A stretch of 64,000 nt of DNA from contig CALAJH010000011.1 in assembly GCA_937922655.1 (NCBI GenBank), positions 100,257 through 164,256 of the forward strand. Reading direction: 5' to 3'. The notes below the pieces were generated by a model, which made no database searches, was not told the origin of the DNA, and saw only the letters and a program-made list of their open reading frames with translations. Below are positions 1-17,085 of the stretch, piece after piece. Source of the stretch: an uncultured Bacteroidia bacterium (GTDB lineage Bacteria; Bacteroidota; Bacteroidia; J057; CALAJH01). The first letter of the stretch is position 1, and each line of letters opens with the position of its first letter. The translations under genes were made by a program, and so were the position numbers.

Positions 1-1036
1 GTTTTTTATTCACAACCGTATCAAAGGTTTGGTAGAAATTGCAAATATGATACAAAAGCTCGTCCCCGAAGCCCGGATTTGTATCGCCCATGGACAAATG
101 GACGGCGAACAGATCGAAAAAAACATGACGGCCTTCGTCGAACACGAGTACGACGTCTTGGTTTGCACTACGCTCGTTGAATCGGGTTTGGACATCCCCA
201 ACGCCAACACCATTATTATTGACGGTGCGCACAACTACGGTTTGAGCGACCTGCACCAAATGCGCGGACGCGTCGGACGTTCCAACCGCAAAGCGTTTTG
301 TTATCTGTTGGCTCCCCCCGTTATTGCCCGTACTTCCGAGGCCAACAAACGTTTGCAAGCCATCGAAGATTTTTCCGACCTCGGCGGTGGTTTTCAAATC
401 GCGATGCGAGACCTCGACATCCGCGGCGCCGGAGACATTCTCGGAAAAGAACAATCCGGTTTTATTACGGAAATTGGCTACGAATTGTACCAAAAACTCC
501 TTGAAGAGGCCGTGCGCGAGCTTAAACGCGAACGCCTCGGCGAAGACGACGACAACCCCGTTGCCGACGAGCGCGATTGTCAAGTCGATTTGGACGTCGA
601 ATTGCGCATTCCCGCCGAATATATTCCCAACGTTGCCGACAGACTCAACTACTATCAACGCCTAAGCAACGCGACCGAAGAAAAAGATTTACAAACGGTC
701 ATGAAGGAAATGATTGACCGTTTTGGCGTCCTCCCCCCCCAAGTTACGGCTTTGGCCGACGTCGTGCGCATACGCGAACTCGGAAAAAAATGTCAATTTG
801 AAAAAATTACGCTAAAAAACAATAATTTTACGGTCTCGTTGCCGTCCAATCCCCAAGACCCTTTTTATTCGGGGCCGGAATTTCAACGGTTGATGGGGTT
901 TATCCAAGGTCAAAAGCGGCGTTTTCAACTTAAACAGACGGGAAAAACTTTGTTGCTTGTTTCCAAAGGGGTGGAAACGTTGTGCGACGTTTGGGTGTTG
1001 ATGAATGACATTTGTCAGGCGATGAGTAAAAAATAG
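1..1036 (+). CDS. mfd: Transcription-repair coupling factor, C-terminal part (5' truncated by window edge)
   Basis: Helicase motifs AHGQM, VLVCTTLVESGLDIPNANT, LHQMRGRVGRS, TRG motif RDLDIRGAG, followed by the TRCF C-terminal domain (IPAEYI..RLNYYQRL). Confidence 0.97.
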   Translation, partial: FFIHNRIKGLVEIANMIQKLVPEARICIAHGQMDGEQIEKNMTAFVEHEYDVLVCTTLVESGLDIPNANTIIIDGAHNYGLSDLHQMRGRVGRSNRKAFCYLLAPPVIARTSEANKRLQAIEDFSDLGGGFQIAMRDLDIRGAGDILGKEQSGFITEIGYELYQKLLEEAVRELKRERLGEDDDNPVADERDCQVDLDVELRIPAEYIPNVADRLNYYQRLSNATEEKDLQTVMKEMIDRFGVLPPQVTALADVVRIRELGKKCQFEKITLKNNNFTVSLPSNPQDPFYSGPEFQRLMGFIQGQKRRFQLKQTGKTLLLVSKGVETLCDVWVLMNDICQAMSKK

Positions 1037-1037
1037 T

Positions 1038-2744
1038 ATGGAAAAGTTGTACGTACTTTTTGTAGACGATGAAACGACGGTGCTTAATTCCATACGCCAC
1101 GAACTGAGCGCCGAGTTGGGGCCCGAGTACGTCATCGAAACGGCGGACTCCGCCGAACTCGCTCTCGAAATCTTCGACGAACTTCGCGACGACGGACGCG
1201 AAATCGCCGTCGTTGTCTCCGACCAACTTATGCCGCGTATGAAAGGAGACGAATTTTTGATTCGCATTCATCGCTTTGCCCCCGAAATCAAAAAAATTTT
1301 GCTTACCGGCCAAGCAAGCGCCGAAGCCGTCGGCAACGCCGTCAATCACGCCGGCCTTTACAACTTTATCGCCAAACCGTGGCGACAAGGCGACCTCTCC
1401 ATGACCGTCAAAAACGCTTGCAACGCCTACAAAACCGAGCGTAACCTCCGCGAAAAGCAAAAGCTCATGGCCGACGTCGAACGTTACGTACGGGTCTTGT
1501 CCGAAGAGATTCGTCTCTTTCCGTGGATGGAAAAAATGCTTCGTCGAATCGTCAAGGACGCCGAATGTTCCCGGGCGCTGTTTTACGTCACGGTGAACAA
1601 TCAATCGTTTTTTCTGCAATGCGACGTCAACGGCGATATTTTGGTGCAGGAAATCAACAAAAAAGAATTTGCGGCCCGTTTCCCGGCTTTGGTTTTCGAC
1701 CGCGTCGCGGAATCGTTACAGCCGTTTTTGTACGATTCCGACCGTCAGGGCGTGCCTGCCGAATGGTCGCTTTTAGGTTCGTTTTATTGCATTCCCTTTG
1801 AACGCAAAGAACGATGCGTGGCCGTGCTTTATCTCGAATCGCCCAAAAAACGCGGTCATTTTACCCCCAAGCGCATCGAATTTATCAATACCGTCGTTAC
1901 CCAAGCCGCCGTTTCTTTGGAAAACGCAATGCTTTATGAAGCGGCCGAGCAGAGAGTACGGGACCGCTCGCGGCTTTTGGACCTCAAAAACCGTGATGTT
2001 GAGGCGGGGGTCGAATACGCCCGCAAAATTCAATACGCCATTTTGCCCGACCCTGCCGGCCTCGAAAAATATTTTTCCAAAGCCTTTGTTTGGTACGAAG
2101 CCAAAGACGTGGTCAGCGGCGATTTTTATTGGTTCGGAGAAAAAGGAGGGTTTGTTTTTTTGGCGGCCGTCGATTGTACGGGCCACGGCGTTCCGGGCGC
2201 CTTTATGAGCGTGCTTGGTTACGCCCTGCTCAACCAAATCATCATGGAAAACAACATCCTCGAAACCGACAAAATTCTTTCGGCCCTTCACCAACGGGTC
2301 TTCGCCATGCTTTCCAAAAAACAAAAGGAAAAAGACCAACTCGACGGCATGGACGTTGCCTTGTGCCGCTTCGACCTCAAAAAAAACCTCTTGCAGTTTT
2401 CCGGCGCCAACCGTCCCCTTCTCCATTACGGCCTTCAAGGCATGACCGAGTACAAACCCTATCGCTTTGCCGTCGGTTCTTCGCAAGAAAATCCCGCCTT
2501 CGGCGCCGAAAACATCAAATTCACCCCCGGCGACGCCGTTTATCTTTTCACCGACGGTTTAGGCGAACAAATCGGCGGCGACAAACGTCAAAAATTCTCT
2601 TATCGCCGCGTGGTCGATTTGCTCGAACTCAATGCCGGCGAACCCATTGAAAAACAAAAACAAAAAATCATCGAGGCTTACAACGATTGGCGCGGAAACA
2701 ACGCTCAGACCGACGATCTGCTCGTTATCGGCGTCAAACCCTAG
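1038..2744 (+). CDS. Response-regulator receiver + GAF-like + PP2C/SpoIIE serine phosphatase
   Basis: REC motifs LFVDDE, VSDQLMP, LLTG, FIAKPW; GAF-like end QAAVSLENAMLY; SpoIIE motifs VSGDFYW, DCTGHGVPGAFMS, DGMD, FTDG, QTDD. Confidence 0.92.
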   Translation: MEKLYVLFVDDETTVLNSIRHELSAELGPEYVIETADSAELALEIFDELRDDGREIAVVVSDQLMPRMKGDEFLIRIHRFAPEIKKILLTGQASAEAVGNAVNHAGLYNFIAKPWRQGDLSMTVKNACNAYKTERNLREKQKLMADVERYVRVLSEEIRLFPWMEKMLRRIVKDAECSRALFYVTVNNQSFFLQCDVNGDILVQEINKKEFAARFPALVFDRVAESLQPFLYDSDRQGVPAEWSLLGSFYCIPFERKERCVAVLYLESPKKRGHFTPKRIEFINTVVTQAAVSLENAMLYEAAEQRVRDRSRLLDLKNRDVEAGVEYARKIQYAILPDPAGLEKYFSKAFVWYEAKDVVSGDFYWFGEKGGFVFLAAVDCTGHGVPGAFMSVLGYALLNQIIMENNILETDKILSALHQRVFAMLSKKQKEKDQLDGMDVALCRFDLKKNLLQFSGANRPLLHYGLQGMTEYKPYRFAVGSSQENPAFGAENIKFTPGDAVYLFTDGLGEQIGGDKRQKFSYRRVVDLLELNAGEPIEKQKQKIIEAYNDWRGNNAQTDDLLVIGVKP

Positions 2745-3732
2745 ACTTAACCCGTTCCAACGCCCCCGCCGCCGCCCAAATCGGAACCTCCACGTTGTAA
2801 ACCGCCTTGCCCGTTCTTTCCAGCAATGTAAAAAGCGCCTTTCCCGCTTCGTTTTTTTTGTCTTTGGACATCAACGATTCCATGGCGTGCATCGAAAAAT
2901 TCGACAACGGCGGCATGTATTTTCTTAATTTTTCGACTATCGTTTCGGCTTCGATGGAATCCAGCCCCGCAAATTCGACCGAAAGCAGGGTTTCGGCGGC
3001 CATACCCCACGCCACCGCCTCGCCGTGAAGCAGGCCCGTGTCCATGAGCAGGCCCTCGATTGCATGACCGACGCTGTGGCCGAAATTCAAGATTTTTCGC
3101 AAGCCTTTTTCCGTCGGGTCGCTTTCGACCACCGCCGTTTTGATTTCGTACGACCTGCGTATCAACGCTTCGTCGTCGAGGTTTTCCGCTTGAAAAAAAT
3201 AGTCCGCGTCGCAAACCAAGCCGTGTTTGAGGACTTCGGCCATACCCGCGCGACGTTGGCGTTCGTCGAGCGTGGCAAGAAAGCGTGTGTCGTAGAACAG
3301 AAATTCGGCTTCGGCAAAGGCGCCGATAATATTTTTTGCCGTTCCGATGGACGTAGGCAAATCGACGGCCGTTTTTCCGCCGATGCATGCATCCGCCATG
3401 GCCAAGAGGGTCGTCGGTACGAAAACAAAAGGGGCGCCGCGCATCCATGTCGCCGCCGCAAAACCCACGAGGTCGGTGGTCATTCCCCCGCCGACGGCGA
3501 CGACGGTCGTTTTTCGCTCGGCGCCCGAGTCCCAAAGGTATTGCCAAAAACGTTCCGTTTCGCGAAGGGTTTTGTGTTTTTCTCCCGACCGAACGAGGTA
3601 AACCGGCTCAAAATCGACAAATTTTTTTTGATGAAGGCTATAAACGTTTTCGTCGACGGCGATTCGTCGGTTTTTCGACAAGAGTCCGGACAAATCTTTT
3701 TCGAGGCGTCCGAAGCGTAAGGGTGCGGACAT
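2734..3732 (-). CDS. aroB: 3-dehydroquinate synthase
   Basis: GEKHKT, GGGMTTDLVGF, PTTLLAMADACIGGKTAV, KNIIGAF, LNFGHSVGHAIE, DKKN motifs. Confidence 0.95.
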   Translation of the reverse strand: MSAPLRFGRLEKDLSGLLSKNRRIAVDENVYSLHQKKFVDFEPVYLVRSGEKHKTLRETERFWQYLWDSGAERKTTVVAVGGGMTTDLVGFAAATWMRGAPFVFVPTTLLAMADACIGGKTAVDLPTSIGTAKNIIGAFAEAEFLFYDTRFLATLDERQRRAGMAEVLKHGLVCDADYFFQAENLDDEALIRRSYEIKTAVVESDPTEKGLRKILNFGHSVGHAIEGLLMDTGLLHGEAVAWGMAAETLLSVEFAGLDSIEAETIVEKLRKYMPPLSNFSMHAMESLMSKDKKNEAGKALFTLLERTGKAVYNVEVPIWAAAGALERVKSRV

Positions 3733-12076: not shown

Positions 12077-15000
12077 TTAAAACGTCCGTCCGACGGTCAG
12101 TATCCATCGAAACGCGAAAGGTTTTTCGCCGGGCGGCGGGGCGTCAACCCAAATCGGAATGTCGAAACGGAATACCAAATTCTTTTCAATCCTTGAAAAC
12201 GTGGGAACTTTGACGTCCAAAACCACGCCGATACCTGCGTCTTGCCGCCAAACGTCGAATACCGGTTTGTCGAAGCCGACGGTGCGTTCGTTGAAGGCCA
12301 ATATGCCGCCGTCGTAAAAAAGATAGGTTTTGAGGGCGGCGCGGTCGAAAGCATAGCGTCTTTTCACGCCAAAAAGCCGTTCGAACTCCAATTCGACGTT
12401 CACCGCCGCGCCCGACGTCGAGCGATAGCCTTGCCCCGTAACGCGGGTGGCGTTGGGACGGTAACCCGTATAGCCGCGCAAGTTTAAACCGCCGCCGTAT
12501 TGAAAATGGTTGCGCAACGAACCATCGCCCCCGGCCATCCATGCGTTGGGAATGTACCCCCGCGCCCGTAAAAAGTCGTTTTCGTACTGTTCTTCGGGAT
12601 TGCCGCCCCACATGTACAGTTGGGATTCGACGGGAAGCGCGCCCATGCCGTATTGCGCAAAAAAGCGGGTGCGCAACCGCAAGCGATTGAAAAAGTCCTT
12701 TTCATGAAGCGAGCGCGCGTTCACGGTCGCAAAATACGCGTCCGTTCCGGGTGCGGCGGTGCGCAACTCCGTCAATACATTGCCGTAACCCCTGACCAAA
12801 GGATAGTTTTTTTCAAAGCCGACGGTCAGCGAGGCGTTGGCTACGTTGTGATTCCAATGGTCGGGTTCGTTGAGAAAGTAACGGTATTCGAACCGCGAGC
12901 GAATCATGTATTTGTAAAAGCCATAGACGCGGTGGAAACGGGGGTTGTAGGGCGAACCGACGGCAAAAGTTTTACCGACGCCGGCTTTGTAAAGTTGGAG
13001 GCCGTCGCGAAATTCGGCCCGAAGCTCGACTCGCGCCAGCCGTCCCAAGAACGGCAACGCCGTCGAATATTCGGCCTTGACGTTTACGGGCGGAAAAGAT
13101 TTTTCGTATTCGGAAAATACCGCTTGCCATTCGGGCAGGGCGTCGGCCTGAGGCCAACCCGTGTTGTACCATACCGACGCCCTAAAACGGTGAAAATCGT
13201 TTAAATAACTTCCTTCGGCGGAAATGCCCGGTTGGAAGCCCGCGTAGGCGTTCCACCACAGATTGGGAAAAAAATTCGCTTTGTAACGTTTCCATTCCGA
13301 ATAATAGCCCGGTTTTTCCATGAAACTCCAGCGCACGGGCTTGCAACCCGAAACGTTGTTGAGCAGGTTTACGTCTCCCAATCGATACGAAGGGTCGATA
13401 ATCACTTTTTTTAACGGCGACGGCAAATCGAGTTCGACGGTATGGGTTTTGTTGATAACGTCCCAGCCGTACCATTGGGGCAAAATCGTACGATTGGAGT
13501 CTTTTTTTTCAAAATAAGTGTTGGGGACGAGGTAGTGCAGGGTGTCTCGGCTTCGGGTAACGACGGCAAAATCCAAAGGCATTTCCATTCGTCCTTTGCG
13601 TTTGAACTTGATTTTTGCGTTCAGCCCGCCGTATTGGGTCTTTACGCACGAAACTTTGTAGTCGAGTTTTTTGTCCGTTTCGAGCCATTGGTCGAAAAAC
13701 CACGTCAAATCGGTTTTGGCGACGTCGGTAACGGCTTTACGGAAGTCGTCGGGATAGGGGTGGGCCATTCTCCACTTTTCGAAGTAGTTTTGCATGGCTT
13801 TTAAGAACAATTTTTCGCCGAGGAGGTACTGGAGGTTGTAAAGCATGACGGCGGTTTTGTAGTAAACCTGTCCGTAACCGCCGCCGTGTCCGAGGGCTCC
13901 GTGGAACCGGTCGGAATGGGTGTTCAAAAAGCCGTCGTAGCCTTTGGCGGCGGCGGTGATGTAGCCGTGGTAGACTTCGGTGAAACGCGTTTCGAGCTTT
14001 GGATTTTCGGGGTCGTAAGGGCCTTCGATTTTTTCAAGGGCCCAAGCGGTTAGAAACTGGGTAAAGCCCTCGTCCAAAAAGGCGCGGTAGGTTTCGTTGG
14101 TGCCAATCATGCCGAAGAACCAATTGTGTCCCACTTCGTGCGCCAAAAGCCCTTTGTAACCCGGGGAAATGTCGCCGTCGAGGGTGAGCATCGGGTACTC
14201 CATGCCGTCTTTGGCGTCGGCGACAATCATTTTGGGATAGGCGTACATGCCGATGTCCTGGGAATAGACGCGAACGACCTTGGCGGTGAATTCGGCGGCG
14301 TCCTGCCAGCCGGCGGCGTTTTCTTCGCGGGCCAAGGCGACGCATTTGATTCCGTTCCATTCGGCCTCCCCGATGCGATAGGTGGGGTCGGCGGTGAAGG
14401 CGAAGTCGTGAACGTTCTCGGCGTGAAAACGCCATGTTTTGTTCGTGCCGTCGGGGGCGATGATTTGTTGGGCGGGGGTGCCGAGTTTTTTGTCGGCAAA
14501 GTTTTTGAGTTCCAACTTTTGGCGTAAATCCGGCGGCATGACCTCGGCCTCGTTTTGCAACACTCCCGTTGCGTCCAAGACGTACTGTTTGGGCAGGGAA
14601 ATGGCCACGTCGTAGGTTCCGAATTCGCCGTAAAATTCCCGGCTCAGATGTTGTTGGGTGGCGTGGCGAAAATTGCGGTCGTAGACGCAGACGCGCGGAT
14701 ACCAGTGGACAACGTCGAAATGCTTGACGGTTTTGAGCGTGCCGTCGGCTTGGCGTTCCTTGACGGCAAAGACCTTCATTCGCCGACGTTGGCTTCCCCA
14801 CCCAAAATAAGTAGTGAAGTTCATTTCGAAGCGACAACTTGCGCCGGGCGCCAAGGCCTCGCGCAATTTGACGCGCATTATCGTGTTGTCTATAAAGAAC
14901 TCCGCGGGGGCGCCGTTGTGTTTGACCGACTGCACTTCCGTCCCTTTACCGTTTTTTTCGTAGGTCGTATATACGATGGGTTCTTTGTTGGCCCGCTGGA

Positions 15001-15313
15001 GTTTTTCGTAATAACTGCCTTTGACGAAAGCGTTTTGATAAAGATGAAAATAGACTTCGGTGAGCGTGTCGGGAGAATTGTTCCAGTATTCGAGCGACAG
15101 ATTGCCCTGAATAAGGTTGATATCGTCGCGGAGGCGTGCGGAAATGACGTAGTGAACGTCTTGTTGCCAATAATCGGAGGGCATGTTCCGATTTTTCCAA
15201 TAATGGGGATTGGCGGGCGAACGATAGGTGTTGGGTGGCAGGACGAAGTCGGTTTGGGCGAAGGCGCCCAGCCACGTCAAGGTCGTTACCGCCGACAAAA
15301 GAAAAATTTTCAC
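12077..15313 (-). CDS. Secreted M1-family zinc aminopeptidase with C-terminal outer-membrane beta-barrel-like region
   Basis: GMEYP exopeptidase motif; HEVGH-x18-E at about 14126-14140; signal peptide after the probable GTG start at 15313; C-terminal amphipathic strands ending in F. Confidence 0.9.
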   Translation of the reverse strand: MKIFLLSAVTTLTWLGAFAQTDFVLPPNTYRSPANPHYWKNRNMPSDYWQQDVHYVISARLRDDINLIQGNLSLEYWNNSPDTLTEVYFHLYQNAFVKGSYYEKLQRANKEPIVYTTYEKNGKGTEVQSVKHNGAPAEFFIDNTIMRVKLREALAPGASCRFEMNFTTYFGWGSQRRRMKVFAVKERQADGTLKTVKHFDVVHWYPRVCVYDRNFRHATQQHLSREFYGEFGTYDVAISLPKQYVLDATGVLQNEAEVMPPDLRQKLELKNFADKKLGTPAQQIIAPDGTNKTWRFHAENVHDFAFTADPTYRIGEAEWNGIKCVALAREENAAGWQDAAEFTAKVVRVYSQDIGMYAYPKMIVADAKDGMEYPMLTLDGDISPGYKGLLAHEVGHNWFFGMIGTNETYRAFLDEGFTQFLTAWALEKIEGPYDPENPKLETRFTEVYHGYITAAAKGYDGFLNTHSDRFHGALGHGGGYGQVYYKTAVMLYNLQYLLGEKLFLKAMQNYFEKWRMAHPYPDDFRKAVTDVAKTDLTWFFDQWLETDKKLDYKVSCVKTQYGGLNAKIKFKRKGRMEMPLDFAVVTRSRDTLHYLVPNTYFEKKDSNRTILPQWYGWDVINKTHTVELDLPSPLKKVIIDPSYRLGDVNLLNNVSGCKPVRWSFMEKPGYYSEWKRYKANFFPNLWWNAYAGFQPGISAEGSYLNDFHRFRASVWYNTGWPQADALPEWQAVFSEYEKSFPPVNVKAEYSTALPFLGRLARVELRAEFRDGLQLYKAGVGKTFAVGSPYNPRFHRVYGFYKYMIRSRFEYRYFLNEPDHWNHNVANASLTVGFEKNYPLVRGYGNVLTELRTAAPGTDAYFATVNARSLHEKDFFNRLRLRTRFFAQYGMGALPVESQLYMWGGNPEEQYENDFLRARGYIPNAWMAGGDGSLRNHFQYGGGLNLRGYTGYRPNATRVTGQGYRSTSGAAVNVELEFERLFGVKRRYAFDRAALKTYLFYDGGILAFNERTVGFDKPVFDVWRQDAGIGVVLDVKVPTFSRIEKNLVFRFDIPIWVDAPPPGEKPFAFRWILTVGRTF

Positions 15314-15339
15314 GCCGTGTATCGAATTAAGGCCCAAAA

Positions 15340-16269
15340 TTACGAAAAAGCGCGTTGTTTGAACCATTCGGCGGTGGTTTGCAAACCGTCGAACAAAAGC
15401 GTTTCGGGGCGAAAGCCCGCCGCCTCAAAAAAATTTTTCGGGCTGATAGAGCTTCTTCGCTGTTCCCCGGGTTTGGGGGGGCCGAATTCGGGGGTAAATT
15501 GACGATTGAAAAAGGCGTTGAGGCCGTTGAACACGTCCACTACGGTGTGTTCTTTGCCCGTACCGATGTTGAAGGCCCCGGAACGCTCGAGCCGGGTCAG
15601 GGCGAGGACGTTGGCACGGGCTACGTCGCCGACGTAAACGTAATCGCGGGTTTGGAGGCCGTCGCCGTTGATGCGCGGCGCCATGCCCTGCAACATACGG
15701 TTTAGAAAAATGGCGACGACTCCGGCCTCGCCATGGGGGTTTTGTCGGGGACCGTAGACGTTGGCGTAGCGCAAGGCTCGATATTCCAAGCCGTAGTTCG
15801 CTTGGTAAACGAAAAGATACTTTTCCACCGCCACTTTGGCCGCGCCGTAGGCCGAAATCGGCTGTAAAGGGGCGTCTTCCGGGGTGGGGAATAGGTCCTG
15901 TTCACCGTAGCACGCCCCGCCCGTTGATGCGAAAACAACGGTTTTCGTACCCCCGAGCCTACAACCCTCCAATACACGAATCGAGCCGACGACGTTGGTC
16001 GTCGCGTCGAAAGCCGGGTCTTCCATCGATTTGCGCACGTCTATCTGCGCCGCCAAATGAAACACCGCGTCATAACCGCCGTCGGCGATGGTTTTCGTCG
16101 TCGCCGGATGGGCTATGTCGGCCTCGATGAGGCGTACGCCGTCGGGGACGTTGTGCGCAAAACCCGTCGAAAGGTTGTCCAACACCTCGACTTCAAAACC
16201 CTCGGCCAAAAGCGCATCCACGGTGTGCGAACCAATAAAACCCGCGCCGCCCGTAACCAATACTTTCAT
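15340..16269 (-). CDS. NAD-dependent epimerase/dehydratase (UDP-glucose 4-epimerase-like)
   Basis: MKVLVTGGAGFIGSH, HLAAQ, YGAAK (YxxxK), RYANVYGPRQ, TRDYVYV; start moved to ATG 16269. Confidence 0.93.
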   Translation of the reverse strand: MKVLVTGGAGFIGSHTVDALLAEGFEVEVLDNLSTGFAHNVPDGVRLIEADIAHPATTKTIADGGYDAVFHLAAQIDVRKSMEDPAFDATTNVVGSIRVLEGCRLGGTKTVVFASTGGACYGEQDLFPTPEDAPLQPISAYGAAKVAVEKYLFVYQANYGLEYRALRYANVYGPRQNPHGEAGVVAIFLNRMLQGMAPRINGDGLQTRDYVYVGDVARANVLALTRLERSGAFNIGTGKEHTVVDVFNGLNAFFNRQFTPEFGPPKPGEQRRSSISPKNFFEAAGFRPETLLFDGLQTTAEWFKQRAFS

Positions 16270-16299
16270 GTGCGCGAATTTCGTTATTTTTGCGAAACG

Positions 16300-17085
16300 A
16301 TGACGATGCGAATCTTTGCCACTCTGATTCTGGCGTGTACGGTTGCCGCCTGCGACCCCAAGTCCAATCCTTGCGACGAGCCGTCCAATCGCGCCTTTTA
16401 CGATTTCCAACGCGCCCTCGACGCGCAGTGCGACGTCGAAACCCTCGCCGTGGCCGGAAAACAAATCGAATCCGTTCCCGACGAAATTTCCCGCCTTACG
16501 GCCCTCAACACCCTTTATCTCAACAACAATCGGCTTTCCACGCTTCCGCAAGCCCTCTTTTCGCTGCCCATACAATATTTGTATATCCACAGAAATAATT
16601 TTACCCAAATTCCCGAAGGTTTGAACGCCCTGACGGATTTGCGCACTTTGGACGCGGGCAACAATCAAATCAACAACCCCGCCGTCGGCAATTTTTCCCG
16701 CTTGCGCTGGTTAAATCTGCGCAACAACGGCATAGAACGGCTTTCGAGCGACTTTGTCTCCGCACCCGAACTGGCGTTTTTGTATCTGCAGGACAACCGT
16801 ATCGATGCTTTGCCCGAGCGAATCGGAGAATTTTCCCAACTTTCGATTTTGGACGCAAGCGGCAATCCGCTTACCGACCTTCCCGCCAATTTCGGCAATT
16901 TGAAACGTTTGCAATCGTTGCGTTTGGAACGGGCGGCGTTTACGGATATGCCGGCGGTCATCGCGGGTTTGGATTCGACCAACGGAGGTTCGTTGCGCGA
17001 GCTTCGTTTGTCGGGCAACCCCATTCCCTCCTCAAAACGCGCCGAAATTCAAGCCCTTGTGCCCAAAGCCAGAATTTTTTGGTAA
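16300..17085 (+). CDS. Leucine-rich-repeat lipoprotein
   Basis: Lipobox VAAC after a hydrophobic stretch; repeated LxxLxLxxNxL units; start moved to ATG 16300. Confidence 0.88.

Follow-up and report, generated by a model that had tools for sequence, protein, structure and literature searches.

RESULTS

Organization of the gene and its conserved motifs

The window analyzed here is a 64,000-nucleotide stretch of DNA from an uncultured marine Bacteroidia bacterium (GenBank assembly GCA_937922655.1, contig CALAJH010000011.1, positions 100,257 to 164,256), and our subject is a gene on its minus strand, at positions 12077-15313, which we confirmed to be a single gene encoding a signal peptide, domains I to III of an M1 aminopeptidase, and a 16-strand β-barrel. 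A first-pass annotation, made by a model from the sequence alone, had read the product as an M1 aminopeptidase fused to an Omp85/BamA-like barrel and as a candidate type V-like protease that displays itself at the cell surface; the fusion and the 16-strand barrel have held up, and the self-display and the type V assignment have not (see Discussion).

Counted from its first ATG, the open reading frame (ORF) is one long minus-strand frame at 12077-15367. Because the gene upstream, which encodes an NAD-dependent epimerase on the same strand (PF01370, E value of 1.8e-61), runs to 15340, the likely start is a GTG at 15313, giving a protein of 1078 amino acids (Table 1). The N terminus, MKIFLLSAVTTLTWLGAFA/Q, bears out the signal peptide of the first-pass annotation, reading as a Sec-type leader with no lipobox cysteine. 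The motifs quoted in that annotation each occur once and in the order given: GMEYP and HEVGH (the latter with E415 as HEXXH-x18-E) in the N-terminal part, followed by GGGLNLRGY (residues 940 to 948), YLFYDGG (997 to 1003), RQDAGIGV (1023 to 1030), FRFDIP (1048 to 1053), and WILTVGRTF (1070 to 1078), which is the C terminus. Residue conservation was read from 70 full-length homologs, and the motifs go beyond chance, since G370, E372, H392, E393, H396, E415, and Y484 in the M1 part and G941, G942, N944, R946, Y997, F999, D1001, G1003, G1027, R1049, D1051, and P1053 in the barrel are invariant across all of them; F1078 is retained in at least 90%. The amphipathic β-strand tail likewise resolves into 16 long predicted strands within residues 677 to 1078.

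TABLE 1 Features of the M1-Omp85 fusion gene, by position in the window
Feature	Residues	Position	Strand	Basis or location
GTG start and Sec signal peptide, cleavage at ~AFA/Q	1-20	15254..15313	-	Sequence; low-pLDDT (predicted local distance difference test) helix modeled by AlphaFold2 at residues 2-18; leader of homolog consensus ends in AQ
M1 domain I, N-terminal beta domain	~21-250	14564..15253	-	AlphaFold2 strands at 52-248; M1 aminopeptidase alignment from model residue ~50
M1 catalytic (thermolysin-like) domain	~251-545	13679..14563	-	PF01433; invariant residues; structural matches
GMEYP	370-374	14192-14206	-	Inside catalytic domain, with E415 and Y484
HEVGH	392-396	14126-14140	-	Inside catalytic domain, with E415 and Y484
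All-beta domain, equivalent of M1 domain III	546-639	13397..13678	-	Six strands, no helix
Structured 37-residue linker	640-676	13286..13396	-	Short helix at 650-653, strand at 660-664
16-strand Omp85-superfamily barrel	677-1078	12080..13285	-	AlphaFold2, Foldseek, VIA-align, hhalign
LNLRGY of loop 6 (892-966)	943-948	12470-12487	-	Inside barrel
FYDGG of strand 13	999-1003	12305-12319	-	Inside barrel
C-terminal beta-signal WILTVGRTF		12080-12106	-	Barrel end
Stop codon		12077..12079	-	Sequence

An M1 peptidase module that lacks the helical domain

The sole Pfam match of the protein is to PF01433 (Peptidase_M1; residues 389 to 543, E value of 4e-14, 53.2 bits against a cutoff of 27.7 bits), and the NCBIfam models for PepN and LTA4H match only weakly, far under their cutoffs. 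The M1 catalytic set is intact, in line with the first-pass annotation: the zinc site HEXXH-x18-E is complete (H392, E393, H396, and E415), and its ligands, the catalytic glutamate, and the glutamate of the exopeptidase motif are among the invariant residues. Y484 pairs with the tyrosine of TVYEKGA in Escherichia coli PepN, which we take to be the catalytic tyrosine of that enzyme. The exopeptidase motif reads D369-G-M-E372-Y373 rather than GxMEN, such that Met-Glu is kept, with E372 invariant, and the asparagine is replaced by an invariant tyrosine. Judged from this intact catalytic set, the module is apparently an active zinc aminopeptidase.

The full-length AlphaFold2 model (mean pLDDT of 88.5; predicted template modeling score [pTM] of 0.85) consists, in order, of a β domain (residues ~52 to 250), a thermolysin-like domain (~255 to 545), and a six-strand, all-β domain (552 to 639). 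When this model is searched with Foldseek, all 36 rows shown are M1 aminopeptidases (IRAP, ERAP1/2, PSA, and APN), with E values of 1e-23 to 1e-20 over ~650 columns, and in VIA-align its M1 matches include tricorn factor F3 (Z score of 29.8 over 456 residues, with a root mean square deviation [rmsd] of 2.9 Å), ERAP1 (Z score of 27.7), and LTA4H (Z score of 27.4). The helical domain IV of M1 enzymes is absent from the model, in which domain III is followed by the linker and a 16-strand barrel and not by the ERAP1-like helices that the first-pass annotation had named as one alternative. On this model, the N-terminal module is M1 domains I to III without helical domain IV; short M1 enzymes have been solved too (e.g., 6a8z, with 435 residues). 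The module thus described shares with F3, ERAP1/IRAP, LTA4H, and PepN domains I to III, HEXXH-x18-E, the glutamate of the exopeptidase motif, and the position of the catalytic tyrosine, and it differs from them in the missing domain IV, in the barrel that comes after domain III, in reading DGMEY instead of GxMEN, and in being predicted to be exported and membrane anchored.

The junction between enzyme and barrel

Residues 546 to 639, six strands with no helix, are aligned as M1 domain III in the Foldseek matches to IRAP and ERAP. A POTRA domain between peptidase and barrel, the presence of which the first-pass annotation had raised, is absent: a Pfam scan of the protein at an E value of ≤1 finds no POTRA family, the region is all β, and hhalign of residues 545 to 690 against a BamA POTRA profile gives 0.2%, compared with 96.2% for a positive control (the N-terminal part of another Omp85 group). 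The linker between domain III and strand 1 has 37 residues, a length kept in the alignment, and its mean pLDDT values per 10-residue block are 92, 91, 86, and 92. A linker that is short and confidently structured, in a whole model with a pTM of 0.85, suggests that the M1 and barrel modules are docked in a fixed arrangement.

Kinship of the barrel with Omp85

An AlphaFold2 model of the tail alone (pLDDT of 81.5, pTM of 0.83) contains 16 long strands, the same set as in the full-length model, and sequence and fold comparisons support the tail as a very diverged 16-strand barrel of the Omp85 superfamily, in keeping with the Omp85/BamA-like barrel of the first-pass annotation. For comparison by sequence, an alignment of 39 tails (A2) was matched by hhalign to 26 Omp85 barrels of four subfamilies, drawn from this genome and its relatives. 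The match has a probability of 94.9% (E value of 4.6e-8, 140 columns) and pairs LNLRGY with svRG, N.ELxF with nElR, YLFGDAG with aFxDaGN, and DAGlG with GxG; eight controls (reversed query, reversed target, five column shuffles, and the M1 part) stay at or below 0.2%. A larger tail alignment reaches 95.2% over 172 columns, as far as the C terminus. The two groups are bridged by a divergent fusion from another Bacteroidota family (L117), which aligns with the tail profile across 412 columns at 99.1% and carries both PF01433 (E value of 8e-20) and, above its cutoff, the Pfam Omp85 family PF01103 (E value of 4.6e-6, 26.8 bits versus 24 bits).

Comparisons of fold lead to the same superfamily. All 47 Foldseek rows shown for the tail model are TamA or BamA (E values of 1.1e-9 to 1e-6), and in a VIA-align run of the tail model against 48,161 chains, ranks 1 to 18 are held by the Omp85 superfamily (Z scores of 20.5 to 15.6, 261 to 303 residues, rmsd of 4.2 to 6.9 Å), among them Sam50 (20.5), BamA of Deinococcus radiodurans (20.2) and Flavobacterium johnsoniae (19.0), FhaC (18.4), TamA (18.3), Toc75 (16.7), and CdiB (15.6). 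BamA of five bacteria is present in these 18, and the best barrel from outside the superfamily is OccD2, at a Z score of 13.6. LRGY, whose R946 is invariant, lies within loop 6, which connects strands 11 and 12 over 75 residues, and FYDGG lies inside strand 13 (residues 353 to 370 of the tail model), a layout that corresponds to the Omp85 “lid-lock” arrangement; both the (V/I/L/M)RG(F/Y/W) motif of loop 6 and the lid-lock layout are described in PMC11358297.

Against this kinship stand a set of negative or modest results. PF01103 has no match in the protein, nor in any of the homologous tails (0/39) even at an E value of ≤10, and searches of PDB sequences with the tail, as a single sequence or as a profile, return 0 matches at an E value of ≤10. 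Profiles of single subfamilies give weak matches (BamA, 0.1 to 0.3%; short Omp85, 12 to 22%; the PD40 class, 0.4 to 6.5%) except for that of the POTRA-bearing second group (29 to 74%), sequence alignment to Omp85 is confined to the C-terminal half of the tail, and the Foldseek TM scores for the tail are modest (0.34 to 0.48, with an rmsd of 7 to 15 Å). The Pfam scan of the 39 tails yields chance-level matches only, none to Omp85, and the same Pfam Omp85 model, elsewhere in the genome, detects four further Omp85 genes; taken singly, these four proteins match by hhalign at nothing above 1.7%. A language-model search pointed the tail to “D15 surface antigen” clusters, a result that we take as a lead only.

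In this barrel family, loop 6 reaches an unusual length of 75 residues. Ahead of LRGY, it holds an extra segment with the consensus AGANPEEMMENKYTRS.GF (in the region of 12524-12640), which is the best-conserved stretch of the tail.

Distribution of fusions and stand-alone barrels

A search with the tail yielded 305 proteins at an E value of ≤1e-3 among 8000 scored candidates. Of the 120 matches listed, PF01433 is present in 119 and PF01103 in none; most have lengths of 1000 to 1125 amino acids, and those with names are “M1 family metallopeptidase” of Bacteroidota. A survey of the architecture, which the first-pass annotation had suggested, located relatives in at least 571 species genomes, nearly all of them titled as Bacteroidota; an exhaustive profile search returned 621 representatives at an E value of ≤1e-3, with 209 of these at ≤1e-30 and many gene fragments among the 150 listed. 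Within the order to which the window belongs, the distribution is patchy, with matches at an E value of ≤1e-20 in 18 of 78 genomes (12 of 37 genera); a sample of the phylum has matches at ≤1e-5 in 71 of 301 genomes. For the genome of the window, the sequencing runs listed are two DNA runs of one marine study and no RNA run.

The barrel also occurs by itself, in frames of ~400 to 480 amino acids, both throughout one family sampled from the phylum (49/49 genomes) and, within the window's order, in three genomes of a single genus. These stand-alone barrels match the tail profile at 100% (E value of 7.5e-75) and the Omp85 profile at 92.8% in hhalign, match no family in a Pfam scan, and, in the examples inspected, carry signal peptides of their own. 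The named relatives of one of them come from Balneolales-type bacteria and are mostly “hypothetical”; among the 120 relatives listed, 3 are named “BamA/TamA family outer membrane protein,” “Surface antigen,” or “D15,” and 1 has a precomputed PF01103 match. There is no M1 gene within ~6 kb of the barrel in any of five loci (5/5). The stand-alone loci are L112 to L116 and L128 to L132 (genomes G144, G092, G184, G196, G060, and G333), and in three of five, a protein of ~577 to 608 amino acids is encoded near the barrel; the two scanned give a weak caspase-domain match (L128) and a weak SH3 match (L130).

Across 80 loci of the fusion gene, the neighbors most often shared are BrkB, nadC, rlmH, and DUF4783, each present in 18 to 25 of the 80. 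The locus in the window differs, with the epimerase gene and carB adjoining the fusion gene. Divergent from the epimerase gene, a leucine-rich repeat (LRR) protein is encoded at 16057-17085 on the plus strand (LRR_4, E value of 2.4e-24); its ORF as listed overlaps the 5' part of the epimerase gene, and its true start is therefore probably further downstream.

Other M1 and Omp85 proteins in the genome and its relatives

The same genome encodes a second M1 peptidase of 1060 amino acids (P0390; L121, contig C5:233954-238585, ORF 10-3189 on the minus strand), which is 31% identical to the fusion protein in the M1 module and has a different tail, of ~430 amino acids, with a nonaromatic C-terminal end. 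By hhalign, neither the Omp85 profile nor the A2 profile supports a barrel in this tail; a language-model search places it beside “D15 surface antigen” clusters (0.97), again only a lead.

Frames of 1056 to 1123 amino acids that match PF01103 in related genomes were suspected of being orthologs of the fusion and were rejected, as they belong to a different class that combines a TolB-like propeller with Omp85. Examples of 1060 to 1110 amino acids at L133:70-3273 on the minus strand (genome G009), L105, and L107 combine a weak MA-clan peptidase-like N terminus and a TolB-like PD40 region with a clearly recognizable barrel of the Omp85 type. The G009 protein matches PF01103 at 6.8e-12, with weak Peptidase_MA_2 and PD40 matches, and has no BLAST similarity to the fusion protein of the window. 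These three are members of the published “WD40-like” Omp85 class.

DISCUSSION

The M1 fusion among enzyme-bearing Omp85 proteins

The M1-Omp85 fusion belongs among the enzyme-Omp85 fusions, and it is widespread, unannotated, and unstudied. As in PlpD and FplA, a Sec signal, an N-terminal enzyme, and a C-terminal 16-strand Omp85 barrel are carried on one chain. The enzyme, however, is an M1 zinc aminopeptidase and not a patatin lipase, its barrel has diverged past detection by PF01103, and it has no POTRA; type Vd, as set out in a 2019 review (PMC6555100), is a passenger joined through one POTRA to a 16-strand barrel, and lipases are the only passengers known. Because it lacks a POTRA, the M1 fusion does not have the type Vd architecture of PlpD.

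The absence of a POTRA is compatible with membership in the Omp85 superfamily, since published “noNterm” members lack one as well (PMC4104836, PMC11358297). “noNterm” is one of ten Omp85 subfamilies distinguished by Heinz and Lithgow in 2014, together with “WD40-like” and “Metallo” (PMC4104836), and the M1 fusion resembles these three in being an Omp85 barrel that bears an enzyme, or no domain, in the absence of canonical POTRA arms; the stand-alone homologs of its barrel fit “noNterm.” The domain carried by “Metallo” is a phosphoesterase, PF00149. In the accessible parts of that paper, PF01433 does not appear in the Pfam table and the word “peptidase” does not occur in the main text, but supplement file 3 lists a “best aminopeptidase hit” for “WD40-like,” with the templates 3qnf, 4fgm, 1z5h, and 4kxd at 98.7 to 99.4. 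Template 3qnf is ERAP1, and both it and 4fgm were identified as M1 enzymes through our VIA-align results. The other two, 1z5h and 4kxd, are presumably M1 enzymes as well. An Omp85 protein bearing an M1-like domain has thus been on record since 2014, in the supplement of PMC4104836, in another class. In “WD40-like” proteins, a TolB-like propeller stands between the peptidase-like part and the barrel, whereas the M1 fusion has a full M1 module of domains I to III, no propeller, no POTRA, and a barrel below the reach of Pfam; as a family, it would have escaped a census based on PF01103.

The first-pass annotation knew of no characterized M1-Omp85 fusion, and in the literature accessible to us, supplements in part, no paper was found in which Omp85 and an M1 peptidase are combined; the 2014 supplement lists M1-like domains for a different class. 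A single paper containing both “Omp85” and a “Peptidase_M1...” string refers to M10 and M17, not M1.

Which side of the outer membrane the enzyme occupies

The M1 enzyme probably lies on the periplasmic side of the outer membrane, a placement that draws on the structural model and on analogy. To our knowledge, N-terminal domains are periplasmic in every Omp85 protein studied. In full-model VIA-align comparisons, 6 of 18 Omp85 rows start at model residues 453 to 458, within the catalytic domain, opposite the part of the target's POTRA region nearest the membrane (TamA 229, Neisseria gonorrhoeae BamA 366, CdiB 149/160, Sam50 50, and Fusobacterium nucleatum BamA 296), and 9 of 16 M1 rows stop at model residues 787 to 791, in the turn between strands 6 and 7, opposite residues of domain IV; by strand parity, this turn is on the periplasmic side of the modeled barrel. 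These ranges hint that the M1 module may sit under the periplasmic face of the barrel, at the position taken by POTRA domains in solved Omp85 proteins, and that the barrel may stand roughly where M1 domain IV would be. The closest analog is PlpD, for which surface translocation of the enzyme has been overturned, topology tests having located its patatin domain “exclusively in the periplasm” (Hanson 2024, PMC11116518), and we propose the same side for the M1 enzyme.

Three points weigh against our interpretation of the enzyme and its placement: the position of the M1 module is read only from the ends of alignment ranges, on an AlphaFold2 model that is blind to the membrane; a 37-residue linker is by estimate long enough, in principle, to cross the barrel; and the exopeptidase motif is the variant DGMEY, such that specificity could differ from that of GxMEN enzymes.

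The self-display advanced by the first-pass annotation, in which the barrel exports its own M1 domain to yield an anchored or released ecto-aminopeptidase at the surface, is on present evidence unlikely. Cell-bound aminopeptidase activity is known from marine Bacteroidota, and this counts in its favor. The protein also has no lipoprotein signal and no type IX signal that we noticed, and its C terminus is a β-signal, such that no other surface route is evident, and a linker able to span the barrel joins an enzyme to an Omp85 barrel as in PlpD and FplA, which the 2019 review classed as type Vd (PMC6555100). Yet the POTRA of such systems is missing, the enzyme domain of PlpD itself proved to be exclusively periplasmic (PMC11116518), the linker is modeled as structured (pLDDT of 86 to 92) within a protein whose overall pTM is 0.85, and in the model the M1 module takes up the position of periplasmic POTRA domains. 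Invariance also extends to the lid-lock residues, by which Omp85 barrels are closed, and a folded three-domain zinc enzyme of ~640 residues would need to cross unfolded.

What the fusion may do

The explanation that we hold with moderate confidence is that a Sec-exported module of M1 domains I to III is joined through a short, rigid linker to a diverged Omp85 barrel and is docked on its periplasmic side. We infer that the BAM machine would insert the barrel into the outer membrane by way of the C-terminal β-signal. Because the lid-lock residues are kept (R946 in the LRGY of loop 6 and D1001 in the FxDxG of strand 13), the barrel is probably closed to the outside. The peptidase, by the predicted model and the analogy with PlpD, would stay in the periplasm, docked under the barrel at the POTRA position, where its intact exopeptidase and zinc residues suggest that it would trim N-terminal residues from peptides that reach this compartment.

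A more elaborate form of this arrangement, which we put forward tentatively and think doubtful, is that the barrel replaces M1 domain IV. Its periplasmic rim would then cap the catalytic cleft, making one chamber of barrel and peptidase, and peptides passing or emerging at the barrel, through the lumen or at the lateral seam, might be trimmed without delay; alternatively, the enzyme might be switched on and off by the state of the barrel. If true, this would be a channel-coupled or membrane-sensing aminopeptidase on an Omp85 scaffold.

A different division of labor, in which the barrel works as an Omp85 insertase or translocase and has the peptidase as its built-in processing or quality control enzyme in place of POTRA, functionally like a protease on an assembly machine, seems to us quite improbable. 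The lid-lock motifs and the β1/β16 region are indeed kept, and the existence of stand-alone barrels (throughout one sampled family, 49/49 genomes, and in a genus from the window's order) implies that the barrel has a role without the enzyme; periplasmic proteolytic quality control was, in addition, what Heinz and Lithgow proposed for their enzyme-Omp85 class (PMC4104836). The enzyme, however, keeps the glutamate of the exopeptidase motif and resembles an aminopeptidase rather than an endoprotease, the surroundings of the gene hold no conserved gene for a partner or substrate (the neighbors common to 18 to 25 of 80 loci are housekeeping genes), and BamA-type Omp85 proteins are already present in every genome searched. 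The patchy spread, 18 of 78 genomes in the window's order, argues for an accessory function and not a core one.

That the tail is no relative of Omp85 at all, being another β-barrel or a soluble β domain with Omp85-like motifs arisen by chance, is very improbable: Pfam Omp85 misses all 39 tails, the PDB sequence searches are empty, and other barrels of 14 to 22 strands reach Z scores of 10 to 13.6, but the hhalign match of 95% has clean controls, a bridging homolog exceeds the Pfam cutoff, the 18 top structural rows are all of the Omp85 superfamily at ~2 Z units or more over other barrels, the motifs fall in their canonical elements, and a few stand-alone homologs are named as BamA/TamA family or D15 surface antigen, 1 of the 120 listed having PF01103.

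Implications

Omp85 proteins are known as machines for protein assembly or translocation. PlpD showed that the Omp85 scaffold can carry a periplasmic enzyme, and with the enzyme on the periplasmic side that we favor, the M1 family would be a second case, with an unrelated enzyme and without any POTRA; its topology thus bears on how general the PlpD result is. There is also a gap in annotation, in that proteins labeled only “M1 family metallopeptidase” are missed by censuses of outer membrane proteins and of Omp85 diversity, and the family concerned is frequent among environmental Bacteroidota, with at least 571 species genomes. In the ecology of marine Bacteroidota, the breakdown of peptides has a central place, and an aminopeptidase anchored in the outer membrane bears on where that breakdown happens.

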